This document shows, piece after piece, positions 3,682-45,400 of a stretch of 64,000 nt of DNA; position 1 is the stretch's first letter; each line of letters begins with the position of its first letter. The notes below the pieces were generated by a model. That model made no database searches and had not been told where the DNA came from. It saw nothing but the letters and a program-made list of their open reading frames with translations. Made by a program: the position numbers and the translations under genes. The stretch covers positions 134,522 through 198,521 of the forward strand of contig JAKLGH010000001.1 in NCBI GenBank assembly GCA_022710775.1, written 5' to 3'. This DNA comes from Patescibacteria group bacterium. Lineage in GTDB: Bacteria > Patescibacteriota > Minisyncoccia > Minisyncoccales > UBA5738.

Positions 3682-3888
3682 GCGATGCGAACAGCTTATT
3701 TTTATTAATCTGGAAGAATACCCCGCTGGCTTTGCCGCGCAGGATGAATGCCAGCCCGGAGCGGTTTGCCTGGGTCCCGCAAAATGCGGGAATAGCGGGG
3801 GATTAACAAAATACTTCGGGGCTCTGCCCCGAAGCAGTTTATTCAAAAAAGAAAATCATTTTTGGCCAAAAAATATTCCGGCCGGCAA

Positions 3889-13560: not shown

Positions 13561-14637
13561 ATGAATTTCTTATCCGACACGATCAAACCGGCGGTAAATA
13601 AAAGCTACCTAAGGGCAAAGACGCTTGTTTTTCGGCTTAGATCGCGGTTTTGTTATTTTAACCGGCCGGCATTTTATCTAGCCGCCGCGGTTATCATATT
13701 TCTATCCGGATATTGTTGCGGCGGAAAAAAAATTGCCGATAGTTACGATACAGGGCAAATTAGGGAAGGAGGATACGAATACATCAATCCTCTTCTTGAA
13801 TGCGATGTTGCAAAGGAATCAATACCCAAATACATCTCATTCGAAGAGGAAACAAAAAAACAGATTAACAAAATCAAAAACGACCACCCAAACGTAACGA
13901 TAGCCGTATATTTCAGAAATTTGAACAACGGTCCGTGGTTTGGAATAAATGAAAATGAGAACTTCATACCGGCCAGCCTCCTCAAGGTTCCCGTTATGAT
14001 GGCTTATTTGAAACAAACCGAAACCGATCCCTTAATCCTGGAAAAGCGGCTTACCGTAATTAAAGATGATAACTTTAACTATAAGCAGAGGGTCGTTCCC
14101 ACCTCTCAAGTTGAAATAGGCAAATCATATCCTGTTGCGGAATTGCTCCATTACTCGATCGCATACTCCGATAATTTAGCGACCATAACTTTAATCAACG
14201 GACTGCCCTCCGAAAAGATCAATAAAGTTTATTCCGACCTTGGCCTCCCCTTGCCTACGGCATCCTATGAAACTGACGCGGTAATATCAACCAAAAATTA
14301 TGCTTCTTTTTTCCGGATTTTATATAACGCTTCTTATCTTAACGAGCAGATGTCGGAATACGCCCTTAAGCTCCTGACAGAGGTTGATTTCAGGAACGGT
14401 ATTGTTGCCAAAATCCCTCCGGATATCAAAGTGGCCCACAAGTTCGGGGAAAGAAATTTTGAAAATCTGACCCAGATCCATGATTGCGGCATCGTTTACG
14501 CTCCGCATTATCCTTACTTGATATGCGTCATGACCCGGGGCAGCAACATGGATGAAAACGAAGAATTGATCGCGGAAACATCGCGCATTGTTTTCAACAA
14601 AGTATTTGAAAACAGGGAAAATTTCAAACGGGAATAA
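13561..14637 (+). CDS. class A beta-lactamase-fold serine hydrolase (PenP/COG2367-like), membrane anchored
   Basis: SxxK (ASLLK), SDN (YSDNLA) and KxG (HKFGE) motifs in the class A beta-lactamase order; N-terminal TM. Confidence 0.65.
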   Translation: MNFLSDTIKPAVNKSYLRAKTLVFRLRSRFCYFNRPAFYLAAAVIIFLSGYCCGGKKIADSYDTGQIREGGYEYINPLLECDVAKESIPKYISFEEETKKQINKIKNDHPNVTIAVYFRNLNNGPWFGINENENFIPASLLKVPVMMAYLKQTETDPLILEKRLTVIKDDNFNYKQRVVPTSQVEIGKSYPVAELLHYSIAYSDNLATITLINGLPSEKINKVYSDLGLPLPTASYETDAVISTKNYASFFRILYNASYLNEQMSEYALKLLTEVDFRNGIVAKIPPDIKVAHKFGERNFENLTQIHDCGIVYAPHYPYLICVMTRGSNMDENEELIAETSRIVFNKVFENRENFKRE

Positions 14638-14642
14638 ACTGC

Positions 14643-14666
14643 CCCGGGGCAAAGCCCCGGATTTTC
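14643..14666. terminator. rho-independent terminator (ccgggg-caaag-ccccgg + T-run)
   Basis: hairpin immediately after the 13561..14637 stop. Confidence 0.6.
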
Positions 14667-14785
14667 CCTTCCGCTGCGCTTCCCTTCAAGAAAGAAAAAG
14701 AAAGAACAACCTTGAATAAATCTATAGTTTCCTGATTGAAAAAATCCGGTGAAAAATGCCGGTTTTCTGTTACGCCGCTTAACGA

Positions 14786-14815
14786 TTGACAAGTGAACAA
14801 TCGTTCACCTATAAT
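14786..14815 (+). promoter_or_regulatory. lexA promoter (-35 TTGACA 14786-14791, -10 TATAAT 14810-14815, 18-bp spacer) with embedded LexA operator palindrome GTGAACAATCGTTCAC (14793-14808)
   Basis: perfect 16-bp inverted repeat with a GAAC-N4-GTTC core (Gram-positive/Cheo-type SOS box) between consensus -35 and -10 hexamers, upstream of the lexA ORF (autoregulation). Confidence 0.7.
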
Positions 14816-14843
14816 GGATAAAAGCGCTAAAAACTTAAAAATT

Positions 14844-15410
14844 ATGCCAAAAAACGCTGCAATTTTGATCAGAAGATTTTATGAAACAAACAAACGAATG
14901 CCGGTTTATTCCGAAATCATGAAACTATTGCGCTTTAAATCGAAAAACTCGGTTTTTAAACTGGTAAAAAAATTGGAAACGACCGGTTTTCTGGAGAAAG
15001 ATAAAACCGGAAAGCTTATCCCCGCTAGCCTCTACAGGCAAACCAGGATTCTTGGCTATGTCCAAGCCGGATTTCCCACCCCGGCCGAAGAAGAACTGGT
15101 TGATACGATTTCCCTGGACGAATACCTCATTTCAAACAGAGACGCTACCTTTATTTTAAAGATTGGCGGCGACTCGATGGCCGATGCCGGAATTCTCGAA
15201 GGGGATATGGTGATCGTCGACCGCTCGATCACGCCCAAAAACGGCGACATCGTCATTGCCGAAGTAGACAGCGAATGGACGATAAAATACCTGGTTAAAA
15301 CAAAAACCCGGGTTTATTTGAAACCCGGAAACAAAAAATATCCGCCGATCTATCCGAAGAACGAATTAAAGATTGCCGCCGTGGTAAAAGCAGTGATACG
15401 GAAATACTGA
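14844..15410 (+). CDS. lexA: LexA repressor (wHTH + S24 peptidase); start placed at ATG 14844, downstream of the predicted TSS; the ORF track's GTG at 14793 lies inside the operator
   Basis: N-terminal wHTH (..VYSEIMKLLRFKSKNSVFKLVKKLETTGFLEK..); AG cleavage site (..VQAGFPTPA..); S24 catalytic Ser/Lys motifs (GDSMADAGILEGDMVIV, EWTIKYL). Confidence 0.85.
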   Translation: MPKNAAILIRRFYETNKRMPVYSEIMKLLRFKSKNSVFKLVKKLETTGFLEKDKTGKLIPASLYRQTRILGYVQAGFPTPAEEELVDTISLDEYLISNRDATFILKIGGDSMADAGILEGDMVIVDRSITPKNGDIVIAEVDSEWTIKYLVKTKTRVYLKPGNKKYPPIYPKNELKIAAVVKAVIRKY

Positions 15411-15544
15411 ATATTCGAAACAATTTTCAAACGATCAAAATTTAAATGTTAAAAATGGAATTTTAAATTTGTTTTGCCAATTTGATCATTTTAGAATTGG
15501 AGCATTGTTTCTGTTTTCGAATATTCGGATATTAGGATATTTAA

Positions 15545-15724
15545 AACGCAAAAGTCCGAAACTTATTCGGACAATTCCACGGCTGGCTTGGCGATCCGCT
15601 CAATGATTTTCGGCCGCGGAGGTGAATACGCGGTTCAAAACCGCGGATCGGCACTCTTTGGGCAATGACGTCCCAAACCGTCTGAAGCCCGTGCCGTCGC
15701 CACAACCAAACCAGCCCGTGATAT
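15545..15724 (-). ncRNA. candidate ~180-nt structured sRNA transcribed divergently from the Y-family polymerase gene (function unknown)
   Basis: Minus-strand sigma70-like promoter (TTGACA-17-TAATAT). GC-rich region whose ends pair (5' GGCUGGUUUGG ... CCAAGCCAGCC 3'). Internal hairpin ccgcgguuuugaaccgcg. Terminated by hairpin GUCCGAAUAAGUUUCGGAC + UUUUGCGUUUU (15554-15572 and downstream). Confidence 0.4.
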
Positions 15725-15730
15725 GTTTTT

Positions 15731-15759
15731 ATATTAACATATATTAAATAAATTGTCAA
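15731..15759 (-). promoter_or_regulatory. sigma70-like promoter on the minus strand (-35 TTGACA at 15754-15759, -10 TAATAT at 15731-15736, 17-bp spacer)
   Basis: reverse complement of 15731-15759 reads ttgacaatttatttaatatatgttaatat. Confidence 0.5.
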
Positions 15760-17078
15760 TAGCGGCTTGCCAACCTTTGAATTTGACCAATTACCCTAGG
15801 GCAATTCTCCATATCGACGGAGATTGTTTTTTCGCTTCCTGCGAGATCGCGCTCAACCCCCGGTTCAAAGGCTTGCCGGTCGTCACCGGCAAGGAACGAG
15901 GCATCGCTTCTTCGATGAGCTACGAAGCAAAAGCGGCGGGAGTTACGAGGGGTATGCGCTTATCCGATATTAAAAAGATCTGCCCCCAAGCCGTGATCCT
16001 CCCTTCCGATTACGAAACCTATTCCTTGTTCTCCGTTCGGATGTTCGATATTGTCCGCCGCTACACCCCGATAGTCGAAGAATACAGCATAGACGAATGT
16101 TTTGCCGATCTTACCGGTTTGCAACGTCCGCTCAATATGGACTACGCTGCCATGGCCGAAAGAATCAAAAATGATCTGGACAAGGAACTGGGCATGACTT
16201 TTTCCGCCGGCCTGGCGCCCACCAAAGTCCTGGCCAAAGTCGGATCAAAATGGAAGAAACCATCGGGTTTAACGATCATACCGGGCCATAATATCCATTT
16301 GTATCTTGCCAAGCTTAATGTGGAAAAAATCTGGGGCGTAGGGCCAGCTACCGCCGCTTACCTGAACAAATGCGGAGTGAATACCGCTTACGATTTCGCG
16401 TCAAAAGACAAAGAATGGGTTATGGCCCGCCTCACCAAGCCCCACTATGAGATCTGGCAGGAATTGCGCGGACAAACAGTTTATCCGGTAACAACCAAAC
16501 AAAAAGACGATTATAAATCCATAAGCAAAACGCGCACTTTCACGCCGGCATCCAGCGATAAAAATTTTGTTTTTTCCCAACTGTCCAAAAACATCGAAAA
16601 CGCCTGCATTAAAGCGCGGCGGCACAGCCTTTGTGCTAAAAAATTCGCTTTCTTCTTAAAAACCCGGGATTTCCGCTATTCCGGCGCCGAAATAAATCTG
16701 GACCGGCCGGCAAATGTTCCCCAAGAGATTATTGGCTTGGCCAAAAAATACTTTAACTCAATATACGAGCCAAAAACCCTTTACCGTGCCACCGGGATCA
16801 TTTTGCTCGATCTTTCCTGTGAAACCGGCGGCCAGCTCGACCTTTTTCGTAAAACTATAAAAGCGGAAAAATTTTCCAAAATTTACGAACAGGTCGACGC
16901 GCTCTCGAAAAAGTTTGGCAAGCACACGGTATTTCTCGGATCCAGCCTGCGCGCGATGGCCGGCCAACAACACGAAAACGGCCGGGGCGATATTCCCCGG
17001 CGCGCCAAAAATTTATTTAGGGGCGAGACCAAAAGAAAGCGGATCGGCCTGCCGATGCTAAAGCTAAAAATTAATTGA
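15753..17078 (+). CDS. dinB: Y-family translesion DNA polymerase (DinB/UmuC-like, Pol IV/V family); ORF-track TTG start, true start more likely TTG 15777/15783
   Basis: ..AILHIDGDCFFASCEIALNP.. (DinB HVDMDCFFAAVE motif), ..YSIDECFADLTG.., polymerase-associated C-terminal domain; sits next to lexA (SOS cassette). Confidence 0.85.
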   Translation: MSIAACQPLNLTNYPRAILHIDGDCFFASCEIALNPRFKGLPVVTGKERGIASSMSYEAKAAGVTRGMRLSDIKKICPQAVILPSDYETYSLFSVRMFDIVRRYTPIVEEYSIDECFADLTGLQRPLNMDYAAMAERIKNDLDKELGMTFSAGLAPTKVLAKVGSKWKKPSGLTIIPGHNIHLYLAKLNVEKIWGVGPATAAYLNKCGVNTAYDFASKDKEWVMARLTKPHYEIWQELRGQTVYPVTTKQKDDYKSISKTRTFTPASSDKNFVFSQLSKNIENACIKARRHSLCAKKFAFFLKTRDFRYSGAEINLDRPANVPQEIIGLAKKYFNSIYEPKTLYRATGIILLDLSCETGGQLDLFRKTIKAEKFSKIYEQVDALSKKFGKHTVFLGSSLRAMAGQQHENGRGDIPRRAKNLFRGETKRKRIGLPMLKLKIN

Positions 17079-17118
17079 CAATTATGATATATTATGATAT
17101 AATTATTTAAGTGATTCT

Positions 17119-17439
17119 ATGAAAGATTTCGTCGCCGCCGCCCTGATAGCGATCTGTTTGATCGCCATTTCAGCCCAAGCAGAGACTAAAGGAATAGAGG
17201 AAGATGAATTCATAATGTTCCTGTTCGTGAATCAAACAGGGACATTTATCAAGTACTGGGACGGCCCCTGCGAAACCGCCTGGTATGAAGTGATCCCCCA
17301 GCGCAATGTAAGTTGTTTGCGCTGGCTGGTGAACGTTTCCTGCGGCACAGGAAAAAACGCCAGCTTCATCAGCGATCCGGTTGCGATAAATAAAATCGGG
17401 CCAGAATTGCGGCTGGTGCCGCTGTATAGAAATGGCTGA
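17119..17439 (+). CDS. small secreted Cys-containing hypothetical protein
   Basis: signal peptide MKDFVAAALIAICLIAISAQA; 106 aa. Confidence 0.5.
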   Translation: MKDFVAAALIAICLIAISAQAETKGIEEDEFIMFLFVNQTGTFIKYWDGPCETAWYEVIPQRNVSCLRWLVNVSCGTGKNASFISDPVAINKIGPELRLVPLYRNG

Positions 17440-17489
17440 AAGCCATTTCATTTTTTTTCGTAACATTAAAAAAACGCGGGATTCCGCGC

Positions 17490-17873
17490 CTATGATAAAC
17501 TCTTTAGATGGCTCTTAACAGCCTTAAGTAATTTACCCTCGATCATTAAACCGCGTTTTTCCAGTTCTTCGATCACGTCAAGATGGGCCCAGCAAACCGC
17601 AATGATGCCGGGACCCGGACTTGGAACGCCCGAAACGATCCGGGATTCGTAAACATGGCCGTAAAAACAGTTGCCGCGGACAGTAGTTAAAAAATTTTCG
17701 ATTTCTTTGTGTATTTCCACCACGACCCCTGCTTCTTCAAAAGCCTCGCGGATAGCGCAATCAGCCGGCGATTCTTTAGGGCCGCACCTGCCGCCCGGAA
17801 CGCTGTAAAGCCCTTGATTGGTCGCGCCATCGCCTTCCAGGATCAGCAAGACTTCTTTATTTTGAATGATCAC
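17490..17873 (-). CDS. NUDIX hydrolase
   Basis: Nudix box GGRCGPKESPADCAIREAFEEAGV (GX5EX7REUXEEXGU). Confidence 0.85.
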   Translation of the reverse strand: MIIQNKEVLLILEGDGATNQGLYSVPGGRCGPKESPADCAIREAFEEAGVVVEIHKEIENFLTTVRGNCFYGHVYESRIVSGVPSPGPGIIAVCWAHLDVIEELEKRGLMIEGKLLKAVKSHLKSLS

Positions 17874-17974
17874 ATTGGACGCGGTTTCTATCGCTGCCGA
17901 TTTTCTTAGCGTATTGATTGCCTCCCGCCGTAATGTACTGATATTTAATTAGCATTTAAATCCTAAAAACAAAA

Positions 17975-17992
17975 GCAGCCGATATCGGCTGC
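17975..17992. terminator. terminator hairpin gcagccgatatcggctgc
   Basis: perfect palindrome 3' of the 18005..18232 minus-strand gene, T-rich on the minus strand. Confidence 0.5.
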
Positions 17993-18004
17993 ATTAATAA
18001 GCGC

Positions 18005-18232
18005 TTAAAGCAGAAAATGAACAACTAGTCCGAGAAGAGCCAGCAATACTCCGAGAAGTACCCCTAAAAATGTGAATCCGTAGCCCAGTAAAACTTTTTT
18101 TGCTCCGCTTCTCAAACTTTGTTTTCCCTCAAATGTTGATTTTCCTTGCAGGTAAAAATTCACTGCCCATACTATGGCAGAACCAAAGCCCAAGATTAGG
18201 CCTAAGATTATTACCATTACCGACAATTCCAT
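18005..18232 (-). CDS. small two-TM membrane protein
   Basis: 75 aa, two hydrophobic helices. Confidence 0.45.
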   Translation of the reverse strand: MELSVMVIILGLILGFGSAIVWAVNFYLQGKSTFEGKQSLRSGAKKVLLGYGFTFLGVLLGVLLALLGLVVHFLL

Positions 18233-18299
18233 TTCTCTACCCTCTTTTTTTTAATTTTTTATTATAGGACCTATGGATAATTTTGTCAAGATTAGAACA

Positions 18300-18328
18300 A
18301 AAGGGCGCAATCCGATCGCGCCCCTTTC
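18300..18328. terminator. rho-independent terminator (gggcgc-aatccgatc-gcgccc)
   Basis: GC hairpin 3' of the GerMN gene on the minus strand. Confidence 0.55.
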
Positions 18329-18351
18329 AGATACAATCTCCGAGAAAGAAT

Positions 18352-19476
18352 CTAGGGCTGGAAAAGGGTTTCGGGCTTGGGTTTGACGATCTTTACGCCT
18401 TCAAACTGCTTGGCTGTGGCTTCAATCTGATACCACAAAACCGCCGCGCGGCAGCTTCCCCCGCTGGTCAAATTGTTCGGATCGGCTAAATCCAGAACAA
18501 GCACGCCGTTCTTCAACGACGCGCCTTTAAGCTCCAATCCGGATAACGGATATTCGGTCGTCAATCCGGCTTGTCGGTCAGCCATAGTCAATTCCCCTTT
18601 GATCAACAGCTTGACCGCGTCCTGAATGGGCGTAATGGTGGCCGGAAGCGTCCTTTCAACCGCTACCAAGCCCTGGCGGGAGCATAAAACATTGCCAGAC
18701 GCGTCCTTGTCAAGTTCGGGATCATAATAATAAAGATTAATTCTTTTTTCTTTTCCGGTTTCCGGTTCAAGAAAGTTCAGAGCGGAAACCAGAACCGTGT
18801 CGCCAGCTTTCTTTCCGATAACTTCGACCCGCCGTCCGGCCTCGAATTTCCCGGAATCGCAAACAGCCGTAACTTCCCCGCTTACGCATTGGCTCTCTTC
18901 ACCGATGATCAGCGGTATCTTAATTCCGGGTTGGCCCGGCTCTTCATACAGTAAAGACCAGAAAACATCTCCGGGTCCGGGCTGGATCAAATTCCCGGTT
19001 TCGGAAAAATCATCTTCCAAAGACGGAAGCAGCACTATGGGCACCCGAAACTCTTTGGAATTCTCTAAAAGGCCCGACGGATTATCGTTTTGCAAAACCA
19101 GCACCGCTTTTTTCTTTTCCGCTGCCTTGAAATTGAGGCTTGCATGAAAAATCACCAAATCCTCGGTCATCCAGTCTCCCGCCGCCTGCGCCGTTCCCTC
19201 AGAAATCGTTTCTCCGTTTTCATCGATGATTTTAACCGGAAAAGATGCTTCAAAGAACCAGGAGCCCCGCGCCCGGCCCGAGATATTCAACGGACTGGAT
19301 ACTTCCTGGTTTTGAGCGGGCAAATCAACCTTGATATCGAATTGCGCAGCCGGTTCTTTGACGACGTCATCCTCGCTAAAACGCGTAGTATAAAAAACGC
19401 AGCCTAGCACAGCCAAGGCGATAAACAACAATACAATCGTCGCGCGGTCGGAAATTTTTTTGGGACCTGTTTCCAT
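18352..19476 (-). CDS. Gmad2 Ig-like + GerMN domain protein (spore-germination-type lipoprotein architecture), membrane anchored
   Basis: N-terminal TM; Gmad2-like ..ISGRARGSWFFEASFPVKIIDENGETISEG..; GerMN-like ..INLYYYDPELD..GLVAVERTLP..PIQDAVKLLIKGELT..GVLVLDL.. Confidence 0.7.
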   Translation of the reverse strand: METGPKKISDRATIVLLFIALAVLGCVFYTTRFSEDDVVKEPAAQFDIKVDLPAQNQEVSSPLNISGRARGSWFFEASFPVKIIDENGETISEGTAQAAGDWMTEDLVIFHASLNFKAAEKKKAVLVLQNDNPSGLLENSKEFRVPIVLLPSLEDDFSETGNLIQPGPGDVFWSLLYEEPGQPGIKIPLIIGEESQCVSGEVTAVCDSGKFEAGRRVEVIGKKAGDTVLVSALNFLEPETGKEKRINLYYYDPELDKDASGNVLCSRQGLVAVERTLPATITPIQDAVKLLIKGELTMADRQAGLTTEYPLSGLELKGASLKNGVLVLDLADPNNLTSGGSCRAAVLWYQIEATAKQFEGVKIVKPKPETLFQP

Positions 19477-28360: not shown

Positions 28361-29072
28361 TCAAGCCGTCCCGGATGGTTATTATCCGTCCGGCGTATTC
28401 GGCAACTTCCCGTTCGTGCGTAATCAGAATAATGGTCCGGTTTTGATTTTCGTTAAGTTTCTGAAAGGTATTTAATACGACCTCGCCGGTTTTGGTATCG
28501 AGATTTCCCGTTGGTTCGTCGGCCAGTATCAAGGAAGGATTATTTACCAAAGCGCGGGCTATCGCCACCCGCTGGATCTGGCCGCCGGAAAGCTGATTGG
28601 CAAAATAATTATAATATTGCTTGTCCAATCCCGCGTGTTCCAATGACTTCATCGCTATCATTTCCCTTTCGCCGGACCGGATGCCGGCATAAACCAGCGG
28701 CAGCATTACGTTCCGCAGAACCGTAGTTCGCTTCAATAGATTGAAAGATTGGAACACAAAACCGATTTTGTTCTTCCTGATATCCGCCAGTTCGTCGTCA
28801 TTCAATTTGGACACGTCTTTTTGGTCAAGCCGATATTCTCCGCTCGTGGGAATGTCGAGCAGGCCGACAATATGCATCAAAGTCGATTTGCCCGAACCCG
28901 ACGGCCCCATAATGGCGACAAATTCCCCGTTTTCAACCGTAAAAGACACTCCTTTCAAAACCGAAGCCGATATCAGACCGGTCTGGTAGGTTTTTACGAT
29001 ATTTTTGCATTCGATCATGTTTTTAACGACCCCGGATACCGCCGCCGAAAATATTGAATCCGCCGGCATCAT
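28311..29072 (-). CDS. ABC transporter ATP-binding protein (MacB/LolD-type)
   Basis: Walker [10 protein letters not shown], signature [15 protein letters not shown], Walker [12 protein letters not shown]. Confidence 0.9.
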
Positions 29073-30759: not shown

Positions 30760-31096
30760 AATTTATGATTTATTGGCTTCTGCCTGTTTTTTAAAGTGAT
30801 CTCGATATTGGTAAATTATAGCTTAGAAAAAAATTTTTTTAATAAACTACCCCGAGGCAGAGCCACGAAGTATTCTTCCAGTTGAATAAGCTTTTTAAAA
30901 CAGCTTTTTGAATAAGCTTTTTGAAAAACTTCGCTATGCCGGCCAAAAAACAAAAAGGCTGTCCAGCCTGCGGCCTTCCAGCTGTTTAGCTGACAGCCGC
31001 AAGCTTTAGCCCCTAAGGCCGAACCGCTTTCCTCCTGTTTTGACCTAAGCGTTCCGGCCTCTCATCTTATTACTACAAAACCGGCCGGTAAAAATT

Positions 31097-37430: not shown

Positions 37431-38894
37431 TTATGTCAAACAAAAATCCCCGGTTTTCTCCAAGGGATTATGCAAAAACTTTTGGCCGCTTCGTTCTCCG
37501 ACCGAGACGACCGAAACCGGAACATCCAAGCCTTCTGTTGATTCAAGGAAGGAAACGTAATTTCTGGCCTCCATCGGCAGATCTTTGAACTCTTTTGCCG
37601 CTCCGATCGGTTTTTTCCAGCCCGGAAATAGGCGGTACTCCAGGGGCCGGCACCCAAACAAAACTTCGGCTAAACCAGCGCGATCTTCCCCTTTTTTGCA
37701 AGGCTTAAACGCTTCCAAGCGCGCGCCGCCGGAACATGGCTGCCATTCAAAGAACCGGTCGACCAGATCCATCCGCTCTCCTTGGTAACAATACGCCACG
37801 CATATTTTTACCCTATTCAGTTCTGACAAGCGGTCCAGATTGGTAAGAGCCAAAGAATCGATTCCGCGGTTCGCGGCTATGCCATAGCGCGCAGCCACCA
37901 AATCTAGCCAGCCGGCTCTGAATTTTCCCTGCCAGGGCCTTGATGAGCCATGAGCGTCAAGCAAGTTTTGCGGCAAGCCGGATTCCTCGGTGACGAACGG
38001 CCCAAACCCGTGCCGCGTGGCATATGCCCGCAATATCCCGATTGTAATCATCTTTCTGCTTGGCATGTGCTCCAAAACCATTTTACGGGCGGTTTTGGCG
38101 GTCGTGCATGTCTTGGTGACATGGGGCAAAAAACCCCAGACCGGATCAAGCAACGCCCCCTGGGTTCCCTCAAAAAGCACGTATTCTGCCTGCTTTATGC
38201 TCAGAAAATAATCCCTGGCTGGTTCTAGCAGATGGCCATATTCCACCCGGAATCGCTGGCACTGTTCCAATATCCGTTTTTTGGGCATCCAGCGCCGGTA
38301 TTCGGCCAGGATGGCGGCAATTCTCCGGTCCTGTTTATTGGCATCGGCAATTGCCTGGGCCGCGGCTAATTTCTGTTCGTAGTGCCAATCCAGCTTCTGG
38401 CGCAATACTTCTTCGTTCAAGCAATCAATAGCGCGTAAAGCTTGGTCGGCAAAATTTTCCCGGTCGATAACCGCTTCGCCAACTCCCATTCCCACGGATC
38501 CGGGCCGGCTGGCTTTATTGATGGCCAGCGCTTTGACCCGGTTTAGCAGCGTATGCATCGGGGTAACCAGATAGCAGGCGGGATCAATTTTTACGCGCTC
38601 GGCAGCACCAATGACGCCCTTATGTTCGAGTTTTCGCGCCTCGATCACAAAATTCGGGATCTTAAACATCATGCCGCCCGACAAATAGCTATTAACGCCG
38701 GCCTGAAAAGTTGCCGACGAAAACTGGCTGAACGTATGTTCCCGCCCCGATCCATCGATAACCCGATGGCCGCCTTGCGGACCGCCGCTGTCCCTGATTA
38801 CGGTTTTTGCGCCCAATTCGTGGGCCAAATACGCCGTTATCGTACCTTTGCCCTCATCACCGAAACCCAAACCTCTTAATATGATCGCGTACAT
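37431..38894 (-). CDS. adenylosuccinate synthetase (PurA) family protein, divergent
   Basis: P-loop GDEGKGT (PurA QWGDEGKGK); ..GGHRVIDGSG.. (GGHNAGH); ..FEGTQGALLD.. (FEGAQGTLLD); ..ILRAYATRHGFGPFVTEE.. (ILKAYSTRVGAGPFPTEL); ~490 aa. Confidence 0.75.
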   Translation of the reverse strand: MYAIILRGLGFGDEGKGTITAYLAHELGAKTVIRDSGGPQGGHRVIDGSGREHTFSQFSSATFQAGVNSYLSGGMMFKIPNFVIEARKLEHKGVIGAAERVKIDPACYLVTPMHTLLNRVKALAINKASRPGSVGMGVGEAVIDRENFADQALRAIDCLNEEVLRQKLDWHYEQKLAAAQAIADANKQDRRIAAILAEYRRWMPKKRILEQCQRFRVEYGHLLEPARDYFLSIKQAEYVLFEGTQGALLDPVWGFLPHVTKTCTTAKTARKMVLEHMPSRKMITIGILRAYATRHGFGPFVTEESGLPQNLLDAHGSSRPWQGKFRAGWLDLVAARYGIAANRGIDSLALTNLDRLSELNRVKICVAYCYQGERMDLVDRFFEWQPCSGGARLEAFKPCKKGEDRAGLAEVLFGCRPLEYRLFPGWKKPIGAAKEFKDLPMEARNYVSFLESTEGLDVPVSVVSVGERSGQKFLHNPLEKTGDFCLT

Positions 38895-42365: not shown

Positions 42366-42439
42366 TCAATCTCTCCATCAAAAAATTAAGGAACTGGATT
42401 CAAACTAGTATTGCGAAAACAAAATGTCAATACTTGGAA

Positions 42440-45400
42440 CTATTGTTCTTCCCAATCCGGAATGGACTTTTTTACCATTATGTTTTTCTCCAGCGAACAG
42501 GTATAGCCGCTGGAATCCGTAACCGTGAGCTTGGTCGTATAGTTGCCCTTGACCGGGTAAACAACCGTAAAAGTCTCAGCCACGGAAGTGTTTGGTACCG
42601 CGCCCTGGATAACCCAGGACCGGGAAGCGAACGTTGCTCCGCCGAAAACTTGCGTGTCATCGGTGTATGTCACTATATCATCCACTTTTGGATCGGCAGG
42701 GCTTAAACTGAAATCAACCGACGGATATCCGTGGAGCGGGGTCGTAAAGCCCGTTCCGGTGATCCAGCCGGATTCTTGGCCTTGGCTATCCCAAACCTTA
42801 AGGCGCCAGTAATATGCGGTATCATATTGAAGTTTTGAAGCCAGTGTTGCGTAGCTATTAGATGACGAAATTATTTTTCCCGAATCGTCGGCCGGCGATG
42901 AAAAATCGGGATCGTCGTCAACTTGCACCTGGCAGTGAGCCTGGGGATTGTTTTCAGGATCGGAGTAATTCCAGGAAAAAATAGTAGCCAAGCCGCTGGC
43001 GCAAAAATCGTTTTGAAAAACCAAAGTATCGGCGGCTGGCGGATCATTGCTCACGCTAACAGTAACCGTAGCGCTTTCGCTGGCTGCCAGGCTTTCCCGC
43101 TCAACGATCATTTTCGGAACGTAAAGGCCAGCCGCGGCGTAGGTATGATTAAGCGTTTTTACGGCGGCGCTGGAGCCGTCCTCTTTGTCGTCCCAAGCCC
43201 CGCAGGCAATAAGGCAGCCTGCTACGGTCGAACAGCTGTCGTTGCAATCGAACCAAACGGTGTAATTAATGGTACCGGCGGCAGTGCCGGATACCGTACC
43301 CGTTAAAACTACATTTAACGGAGCTGACCCAGAATCAGGAGCGGCAACAACATCAACCGATAACGTTGCCGGGCCGCCGCCGGAAACAACAGTTACAGTA
43401 TCGGTGTCGGAAGCGGTCAGGCTCGCCCGCTCCACAACGATCTTGGGAGTATAAACTCCGATGGCGGCGTAGGTATGATTAAGCGTTTTTACGGCGGCGC
43501 TGGAGCCGTCCTCTTTGTCGTCCCAAGCTCCGCAGGCAATAAGGCAGTCGGCTACGGTCGAACAGCTGTCGTTGCAATCAAACCAAGCGGTGTAATTAAT
43601 GGTACCGGCGGCAGTGCCGGACACCGTGGCCGCAAGAATAGTGGCAAGCGGAGCGTTGCCGGAAAACGGAGCCGCGGCAATATCAACCAATAACGTTGAA
43701 GCCGGGGAAACGGTAACCGTATCGCTTCCGAAGGCAACCATCGATCCGCGCTCCACGATGATCTTAGGCAGGTAAGTACCGGCGGCTGCGTAAGTATGGA
43801 CATAGCTTTTCACAGTATCGTTGGAACCGTCGTCTTTTGCGTTCCAAACGCCGCAATCAGCCACGCAGCCAACTACCGTCGAACAAGCGCTGTTACAATC
43901 ATACCAGACAGTGTAATTAACGGTTCCCGCGATATTGCCCGAAACCGTAGCGGTAATAGTCGTATCCAATGGCGCATTGCCGTGATCCGGACTAACGGCA
44001 ACCGCCACGTTCAGCGTTTTCGGACAGCTGGAACTCGCTACGCATTGGGATTCCGAAAGGCAGCCGCTGGGAGCGCAAGTCCGGTTTTGGCGCATTTGAT
44101 CCGCGGCGCAACTGCCCAAACCGCAATCGTCGTCGGCCCAAGCGGTGCAAACGCAGCATGTAGGATCGGCTACGCATTGGGTTTCAGCAAGACAAGCGGC
44201 CGGATTGCAAGTCCGGGTCTGCAATTTTTGCAAAAGCGTGCATCCGCCCGTACCGCAAGTTCCGGCGGTGCTCCACGATCCGCAGGAACAGGCAGAAACC
44301 GAAGACCTCGCTTCAGCAGTTAGACCTTCTCGCTCAATGAGGACTTTCGGCGTAGCGCTAGCAGTATATGTCGTCAATATCGAATAAGTCGCCGAAGCGT
44401 TATTGAGCGACTGATGGTCGGGTGCCTGGCAAGCGGCTTGGCAAGCGGATAAAGTGGAACAGGTATCGTTGCAATTCCACCAAAAATAGTAATTCAAAGT
44501 TCCTTGAGCGTTGCCCGAAGCTGTCGCGGTCAGCATGCTGGACAAAGGCGAGTTGCCCGATGAAGGACTAACGCTCAAGGACGCCGATAAATTTATACAG
44601 GAATTATCGGCAACGCATTGGCTCGCCGATTGGCAGCCGGCCGGATTACAAACCCGGGTCTGATTGCGCTGGCGCAAACTGCAAGTTCCTCCGCCGCAAG
44701 CTCCATTGGTCCACGAACCGCAGGAACAGCAGGTAGCGTCATTTACGCACTGGCCTTCGCTTTTACAGCCGGCCGGAGTGCAAGTCCTCGTTTGGTATCT
44801 TTTAGTATCTTGGCACGAACCTCCTCCGCATGCCTGGTTCGTCCAGGCGCCGCAAGTACAGGGTATATAGGATACTGTCGAATAAGCCGCTTGCCACGTA
44901 TAAGCCGATGTGGACGAATTCGGACCGCCGGCAATAATAAGCTTGCCGAAAGGATCCCAGCGCTGCATAATCCCGCGATAATAAACAACGAATCGGGCAT
45001 TCCCGGAAAATGACGCCGTCGGAAGCACAAAAGTCTTGTTATATGAAAATGAATTCACTTTGGAAACGCTTGAAGGACTGTAGGATCCCAGTTTGATTAT
45101 TTTAGTCGCGCCGCCGGTATTCACCGTATCGACTTCGTCGCAATAAGGAATTTTTGAACTGCCGCACCAGTCCTGGATCTTGCCGCAACAGGAAGAACAC
45201 GGGCTCCATTTACAACCTGGCCATTTTAAAGGACAAGGCACGGACGGAGAAAGTGTCGGACAGGATCCGGCCGTCGAGCAGCTGTACATCAAACAGCTTT
45301 CCTGATCGTAATATTCATCGTTGCAAGCATCGATCAAAGGCACTTTGGCGTCTTCCATCATATAAAATTCCATTATACCGCCGCTCCAGCCCGCCGTGTA

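Follow-up and report, generated by a model that had tools for sequence, protein, structure and literature searches.

What is encoded by the GC-rich segment that lies between lexA and the dinB-like Y-family polymerase gene of a patescibacterial genome? The locus belongs to a 64,000-nucleotide (nt) stretch of contig JAKLGH010000001.1 (assembly GCA_022710775.1, Patescibacteria group bacterium), referred to here at its full length as the window. The lexA-dinB spacer of the window measures 342 nt and has two parts, an AT-rich palindrome and a candidate RNA element. Across 15580-15729 the G+C content is 0.57-0.63, against 0.20-0.32 in the flanking spacer. This contrast was pointed out in the original prediction, an earlier note made from the sequence alone, which proposed a structured small RNA on the minus strand, and it is borne out by the base composition. 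The analysis points to a minus-strand small-RNA gene of ~180 nt (~15724 to 15545) with its own putative promoter and intrinsic terminator, a reading that is given a probability of about 0.6. Bacteria of the Candidate Phyla Radiation (CPR) have tiny genomes and few recognisable regulators. An antisense RNA gene within an SOS operon, if true, would add a post-transcriptional layer to the control of SOS mutagenesis.

The candidate transcription unit is framed by two signals on the minus strand. The promoter scan finds a -35 hexamer TTGACA at 15759-15754, which overlaps the first two dinB codons, including the TTG start, on the opposite strand. It is followed by an extended -10 element, TGTTAATAT (15731-15739), made up of the hexamer TAATAT at 15736-15731 and a TG two bases upstream. 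With a 17-nt spacer this site has 10 of 12 consensus matches, and the TTGACA-17-TAATAT promoter of the original prediction (15759-15731) is therefore present. Matches of at least 9/12 are not rare in AT-rich DNA, where 2.9 are expected per 2 kb. From the usual distance of 6-8 nt to the -10, transcription would start near A15724. The other end is marked by a predicted intrinsic terminator at 15543-15572, with a hairpin GUCCGAAUAAGUUUCGGAC (15572-15554) and then UUUUGCGUUUU, as had been noted for the end of the segment. The terminator stem is 7 bp long, GUCCGAA-UAAGU-UUCGGAC, and it is one-directional, as no U-run follows the hairpin on the plus strand.

The 181-nt minus-strand RNA folds with a minimum free energy (MFE) of -77.9 kcal/mol (z = -3.97), and none of 200 dinucleotide shuffles is as good. 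The fold is a three-way junction formed by a closing helix, P1, and two arms, P2 and P3. The core of P1 consists of 11 bp between GGCUGGUUUGG (15716-15706) and CCAAGCCAGCC (15591-15581). It is extended across one bulged G by CAC/GUG (15720-15718 with 15580-15578), the two strands of the helix spanning 15706-15720 (5′) and 15578-15591 (3′). The long closing helix described earlier for the ends of the segment is thus found, with a 3-bp extension. The sole unpaired junction strand is J1/2, UUGUGGCGA, at 15697-15705. The P2 arm (15649-15696) contains CGGCA/UGCCG, an asymmetric purine-rich internal loop AAAGAG, GGGC/GCCC, GACG/CGUC and an 8-nt loop. The P3 arm (15593-15648) contains AUCCGC/GCGGAU, GGUUUU/AAAAUC and CCGCG/CGCGG, and ends in a 10-nt apical loop, UAUUCACCUC, at 15628-15619.

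This architecture does not correspond to a catalogued RNA. No Rfam 15 family reaches its gathering score in the window, and nothing relevant is returned for the homologous copy described below. At E <= 10 over 15300-15900 no family fits, the best match being an 18-bit match to a microRNA model. ARAGORN detects no transfer RNA and no transfer-messenger RNA (tmRNA). The 6S RNA, the signal recognition particle (SRP) RNA, RNase P RNA and tmRNA were each considered and set aside on the grounds of wrong structure and no Rfam match; 6S RNA is a rod with a central bubble, compared with the three-way junction here. The judgement by eye that the segment is none of these four agrees with the covariance models and ARAGORN. 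A short full-text literature check gave no description of such an RNA, or of regulatory small RNAs, in CPR/Patescibacteria.

A DinB-anchored scan, limited to one genome per species, gave 30 relatives' lexA-dinB loci, and all DinB relatives came from Paceibacterota-type metagenome-assembled genomes (MAGs). The sole homologue of the element among these loci is found in L018 (CAYYEP010000011, a distant Patescibacteria MAG; nhmmer E = 1e-5), where it occupies the equivalent position and points the same way. The DinB and LexA proteins of L018 are 71% and 68% identical to those of the window, respectively. The minus strand of the L018 copy folds at -86.0 kcal/mol (z = -6.65) into the same P1/P2/P3 junction, so that the three-way junction is recovered by folding in both genomes. 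A promoter-like site, TTGAAA-18-AATAAT, is located at 2974-2945 of L018, just before the dinB ATG at 2980, and in both genomes a 10/12 promoter-like site stands 12-20 nt 5′ of P1. In both, too, a GC-rich hairpin with a U-run follows 8 nt after P1. The L018 terminator, GUCCAGAAAUAUUUCUGGAC (2754-2735), has the form GUCCAGAA-AUAU-UUCUGGAC followed by CUUUGUUUUUUU, and contains two double changes.

The two copies were aligned by hand, helix by helix, to the structure, giving 51 pairs from two sequences. Standard pairing is seen in 94/94 cells of this curated alignment for which both partners have a letter. Changes on both sides affect 11 of the 51 pairs and changes on one side a further 3, the double changes being spread over 6 of the 7 helices, terminator included. 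When the 3′ partners are slid by 1-3 columns, pairing falls to 23-49% with 0-1 double changes. P1 carries two double and two single compensatory changes in L018. The base of P2 and its internal loop (A-AGA-UGCCG) are conserved; the distal part of this arm differs in length and sequence and still pairs. Five double changes fall in the P3 helices (helices 4-6), and in L018 P3a is longer and the apical loop reads GUGUUCCCA. The UUGU of J1/2 is identical in the two copies.

Identity between the window and L018 is 71% in paired columns and 41% in unpaired columns, compared with 33-50% at the four-fold degenerate sites of lexA and dinB. These values indicate that the helices and junction blocks are conserved above the neutral level. 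The conserved blocks are UUGGUUGU, CGGCA, A-AGA-UGCCG, UCCGCG, GCGGA and CGCCAAG. The comparative alignment called for with the original prediction thus reveals conservation of sequence and structure in one relative, and the promoter, structured RNA and terminator recur in the same order at the same locus and orientation with compensatory changes in 6/7 helices. Taken on this comparison, the segment is very probably a real, selected structured element.

The next question is which strand carries the function. The plus strand also folds, at -70.8 kcal/mol (z = -4.6) in the window and -69.6 kcal/mol (z = -5.2) in L018. Both strands fold well above chance, so z-scores alone do not pick the strand. 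Three other features favour the minus strand. Firstly, promoter-like and terminator-like signals are present on this strand in both genomes, and the hairpin has a U-run solely on that side. Secondly, the four wobble pairs, each a G-U on the minus strand, become A-C mismatches on the plus strand. Thirdly, folding this alignment gives a consensus of -71.5 kcal/mol for the minus strand, compared with -51.9 kcal/mol for the plus strand. The single-sequence MFE values are also lower on the minus strand, at -77.9 vs -70.8 in the window and -86.0 vs -69.6 in L018 (kcal/mol). The minus strand is likely to be the functional strand.

The alternative that survives best, an unlikely one, is that the plus strand is the functional one. 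The element would then act within the lexA-dinB messenger RNA (mRNA) as a structured segment between the two cistrons and set the amount of DinB made per LexA transcript, whether by affecting processing or stability, by attenuation, or as a leader that binds a ligand or protein. Its position directly 5′ of dinB in the sense orientation agrees with this, as do the above-chance plus-strand folds in both genomes and the combination of conserved junction nucleotides with variable peripheral stems, which is typical of aptamer-like leaders. In addition, with neither a convincing promoter nor a LexA box belonging to dinB itself, the segment is probably part of a sense transcript in any case. The four A-C mismatches, a consensus fold weaker by ~20 kcal/mol, the U-run on the minus side only and the corresponding minus-strand promoter-like sites of the two genomes all speak for the other strand. 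Furthermore, no expression platform (a terminator or a helix sequestering the start codon) is seen, and there is no match to a cis-regulatory family in Rfam.

The role of a minus-strand RNA would depend on how the flanking genes are expressed. The lexA gene (14844-15410, plus strand; Pfam Peptidase_S24 and a LexA DNA-binding domain) probably starts at ATG 14844, as judged from the position of its promoter. That promoter, TTGACA-18-TATAAT, was found by the promoter scan at 14786-14815 on the plus strand. A Gram-positive-type LexA box, GAACAATCGTTC, lies inside its spacer at 14795-14806 (GAAC-N4-GTTC search) and is the sole intergenic LexA box in the window. The L018 lexA promoter has a GAAC-N4-GTTC box, GAACAGCCGTTC, at the equivalent position. 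Three more exact GAAC-N4-GTTC sites occur in the window (28718-28729, 38730-38741 and 42437-42448), each within a long open reading frame (ORF), and are probably chance matches for that reason.

The dinB-like gene (15753-17078, plus strand) encodes a protein with the Pfam domains IMS, IMS_HHH and IMS_C. Its TTG start at 15753 is backed by the family N-terminal motif PLNL...(F/Y)PRAILHIDGD, seen in the N-termini of 120 homologues, and public records call the window DinB with the same start. The lexA gene is found directly 5′ of dinB on the same strand in 27/30 loci, mostly with a spacer of ~15-30 nt, and lexA-dinB looks like one LexA-controlled operon. In the window spacer (15380-15800) there is no LexA box with up to one mismatch, and the scan of the window finds no plus-strand terminator between the two genes. 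The single plus-strand promoter-like site in the spacer is a 9/12 match at 15718-15745, which would make dinB leaderless with a TTG start. Lacking a LexA box, a convincing promoter and a preceding plus-strand terminator, dinB most likely depends for its expression on read-through from the LexA-repressed lexA promoter, like its counterparts in relatives with short spacers. No Shine-Dalgarno (SD) sequence is visible for lexA or dinB.

Since lexA and dinB are both on the plus strand, a minus-strand RNA would be antisense within their spacer. It had been described as divergent between lexA and the polymerase gene. This holds for dinB, to which it is back-to-back; with respect to lexA the candidate is convergent.

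The favoured, though tentative, proposal for its function is that of a cis-antisense brake or threshold on dinB. The RNA would be transcribed independently from the minus strand, fold as the three-way junction and end at its own terminator. With the operon apparently driven solely by the LexA-repressed lexA promoter, the dinB message must traverse the complement of the RNA. RNA polymerase at the antisense promoter, whose -35 lies over the dinB start codon, could interfere head-on with read-through from lexA. The RNA, being perfectly complementary to the intercistronic RNA, could also direct duplex-dependent processing of the message, which would uncouple DinB from LexA output.

Among the closest known systems is GadY, a cis-antisense small RNA of the E. 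coli gadX-gadW spacer, which has its own promoter and terminator and directs processing of the bicistronic message. The candidate likewise lies on the opposite strand in the spacer of two apparently co-transcribed genes and is perfectly complementary to their intercistronic part. It differs from GadY in its CPR host, its lexA-dinB operon and its three-way junction. There is no similarity in sequence or structure, and Rfam, which holds GadY, gives no match. For the candidate, GadY-type processing is a proposal.

A second point of comparison is the group formed by IstR-1/tisB, SymR/symE and AgrB/dinQ. In these systems a constitutive small RNA is encoded beside or opposite a gene under LexA control, leaky expression of which is harmful; IstR-1 buffers leaky tisB. 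The logic proposed here, a threshold for an SOS gene, is similar. The presumed target is a polymerase gene and not a small membrane toxin, no conserved toxin ORF is found, the RNA promoter has no LexA box and there is no family match.

Several points weigh against a minus-strand antisense gene. The plus strand folds significantly and the Watson-Crick pairs are equally valid there. The element is known from two sequences, and the pair counts come from an alignment hand-fitted to the structure. A gap of ~29 nt separates the predicted RNA from the dinB start codon, so the translation start would not be masked directly. The conserved junction core exceeds what plain base pairing with a target would require and points to a further activity, conceivably the binding of a protein or ligand. 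Close relatives that retain the lexA-dinB operon do not have the element, which is thus dispensable. Lastly, other GC-rich palindromic inserts, unrelated to this one, lodge in the spacer, so that the prior for a selfish DNA insert is higher.

The junction core leads to a further alternative, considered improbable, in which the transcript is a trans-acting or protein-binding or sequestering small RNA that pairs with distant mRNAs via an exposed loop, its SOS location being incidental. The promoter and terminator signals and a conserved core in excess of antisense requirements would fit, as would the C/U-rich character of both P3 apical loops, UAUUCACCUC and GUGUUCCCA. However, the two genomes do not share the loop sequence. 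An anti-SD seed, CACCUCC, in the P3 loop of the window was examined and rejected, as the L018 loop differs and there is no SD enrichment in the genome: GGAG/GAGG lies 5-18 nt 5′ of the candidate starts of 12/57 ORFs (at least 150 amino acids (aa), whole window), compared with 18/57 random internal positions. Absence from a 96%-identical strain and from ~40 relatives would not be expected of a housekeeping RNA, and the identical location of the two copies favours a local role.

The distribution of the element bears on whether it is an RNA gene at all. Comparison by blastn with L031, whose DinB is 96% identical, delimits a strain-variable cassette at 15433-15788 (no strand) that takes in the palindrome, the RNA unit and codons 1-12 of dinB. 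In the flanks, identity between L031 and the window is 94% (13724-15432) and 96% (15789-18500); between them L031 has an unrelated 324-nt segment in place of the cassette. The window DinB N-terminus reads ..LNLTNYPRAI.., in contrast to ..AEFPRAI.. or ..NEFPRAI.. in its closest clade-mates, a difference that points to recombination as the origin of the window state. The N-terminus was also tried as a marker for the cassette and discarded, because the PLNL motif occurs throughout the family.

The element is absent at 12 contigs looked up individually, which comprised the closest DinB homologues (96-68% identity to window DinB) and the nearest relatives of the L018 DinB. The spacers of these relatives measure 20-350 nt and contain AT-rich inverted repeats or unrelated GC hairpins. 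In total ~40 relatives are without the element. A covariance model built from both copies (R1) recovers just those two in the window and 43 related loci (309 kb). No second copy within a genome is found by blastn, nhmmer or R1 in the window or the 43 loci, which cover a fraction of each genome. The element is an accessory, narrowly distributed cassette, found in two genomes.

Wider collections gave no further copies. The pattern TTGGTTGT N3-8 CGGCAYGGG N25-50 TGCCG has 68 metagenome hits, all by chance, none of which aligns to the remainder of the element or has a matching P1 partner; the five inspected in full are GC-rich sequence lacking the other helices of the element. A protein identical to the window DinB is on record for 'Candidatus Paceibacterota' MAGs (NCBI HOX29669.1, HRZ50447.1 and HSA36168.1), and JGI contigs of ~404 kb with the exact DinB also exist. 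The metagenome scan missed the window's own locus despite these contigs, and its negative outcome is therefore weak. Two pattern scans and one DinB-anchored scan of viral contigs returned nothing relevant, and blastn against phage and plasmid collections gave no element match.

A similarly improbable explanation is that the element is a selfish or passively acquired palindromic insert, comparable to miniature inverted-repeat transposable elements (MITEs) or repetitive extragenic palindromic (REP) sequences. In that case P1 would correspond to its inverted ends, with promoter and terminator look-alikes arising from the AT-rich flanks. Different GC-rich hairpin inserts do occur in the spacers of L001, L002, L027, L031, L034, L038 and L111, with a transposase-bearing one in L014, and the L031 insert belongs to a dispersed repeat family with a copy in the window. 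The 11-bp inverted ends and MITE-typical size also fit. Like REP and MITE inserts, the candidate is a ~140-bp GC-rich hairpin-forming segment in an AT-rich spacer which hosts other inserts and differs between near-identical strains. Unlike them, it is single-copy in the 64 kb of genome and 309 kb of related loci searched, and no flanking target-site duplication is visible; the whole spacer differs in the sister strain, so there is no clean empty site. Moreover, seven helices are kept through 11 double changes at near-saturated silent divergence (33-50% identity), and the junction sequence, the orientation and the placement of promoter and terminator in register are also kept in L018. Even if it is merely a palindromic insert, the element still documents a hot spot of recombination or insertion at lexA-dinB.

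The suggestion that the RNA is SOS-linked and resembles a type I toxin-antitoxin RNA is not supported. No LexA box with up to one mismatch is present in the spacer or in the RNA promoter. LexA control of this promoter was considered on account of a look-alike, TTAATATATGTTAA, in the promoter spacer; it has three mismatches, L018 has none there, and the idea was dropped. The statement that there is no convincing peptide ORF agrees with an empty tblastx comparison of the window with the L018 loci. A peptide gene was rejected on the same result and on indels between the copies that are mostly not multiples of three. The sole overlapping small ORF (15469-15606, plus strand) encodes 45 aa from a TTG start.

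That the RNA is the antitoxin of an SOS-linked type I pair, overlapping the 3′ end of a small plus-strand toxin message in a geometry resembling txpA/RatA or bsrG/SR4, is very improbable, since the ORF, for all its partly hydrophobic N-terminal half, basic tail and overlap with the 3′ 60 nt of the RNA, has no counterpart in L018 (where plus-strand ORFs are unrelated and not hydrophobic), starts with TTG inside the AT-rich palindrome, has no plus-strand promoter-like site before it in the spacer (the scan matches only 14786-14815 and 15718-15745) and has no LexA box nearby.

The sequence features of the original prediction are thus confirmed, and the comparison lends partial support to its small-RNA interpretation, with the SOS and toxin-antitoxin flavour unsupported. 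The minus-strand gene would be a new candidate of a known kind, a cis-antisense bacterial small RNA. A more speculative extension, of low probability, is that in this CPR group the lexA-dinB spacer serves as a swap site for alternative structured-RNA cassettes exchanged by recombination. The window cassette would then belong to a new riboregulator class, with a junction core that binds a protein or small ligand and an antisense action, the two setting the threshold for polymerase induction. If this were true, strains with different cassettes would differ in stress mutability, and the RNA would be among the first regulatory small RNAs defined in Patescibacteria. Natural strains of the window type and the L031 type (Logan ERR7850084), with flanks 94-96% identical, make the effect of the cassette on the dinB:lexA ratio readable from metatranscriptomes.

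Other features of the spacer concern its AT-rich part. Directly after the lexA stop lies a 118-nt imperfect palindrome (15409-15526, no strand; inverted repeats I3, I9 and I11), which reads GAATATTCGAAA...TTTCGAATATTC. An AT-rich inverted repeat, AATTTTCAATTTTC.../...GAAAATTGAAAATT, fills the lexA-dinB spacer in L001, L031, L036, L038, L039 and L041. Unrelated GC-rich hairpins often sit at the centre of such spacer repeats. The spacer insert of L014 (2211-3010) is ~800 nt long and flanked by ACAGGGCGCCCCTGTA palindromes. It contains an ORF that by eye resembles a REP-associated or IS200-type Y1 transposase (..LMPNHFHLL..).

The GC-rich core of the replacement segment in L031 is a dispersed repeat, the other copy of which is found at 3697-3850 of the window (E = 3e-17). 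The first ~100 nt of this copy, which is on the plus strand, share ~85% identity with the L031 cassette (L031:1755-1945). No Rfam family matches the repeat at 3697-3850. It may represent another small-RNA family, a mobile element or a shared terminator module. Two further occurrences of its terminal hairpin, GGGGCTYTGCCCC..CAGTTTATT, are seen in the window, at 14633-14658 and 30841-30866, both on the minus strand. A beta-lactamase-fold gene is located 5′ of lexA in the window (13561-14637), and in L032 and L033, whose DinB is 83% identical, a gene of this fold sits between lexA and dinB.

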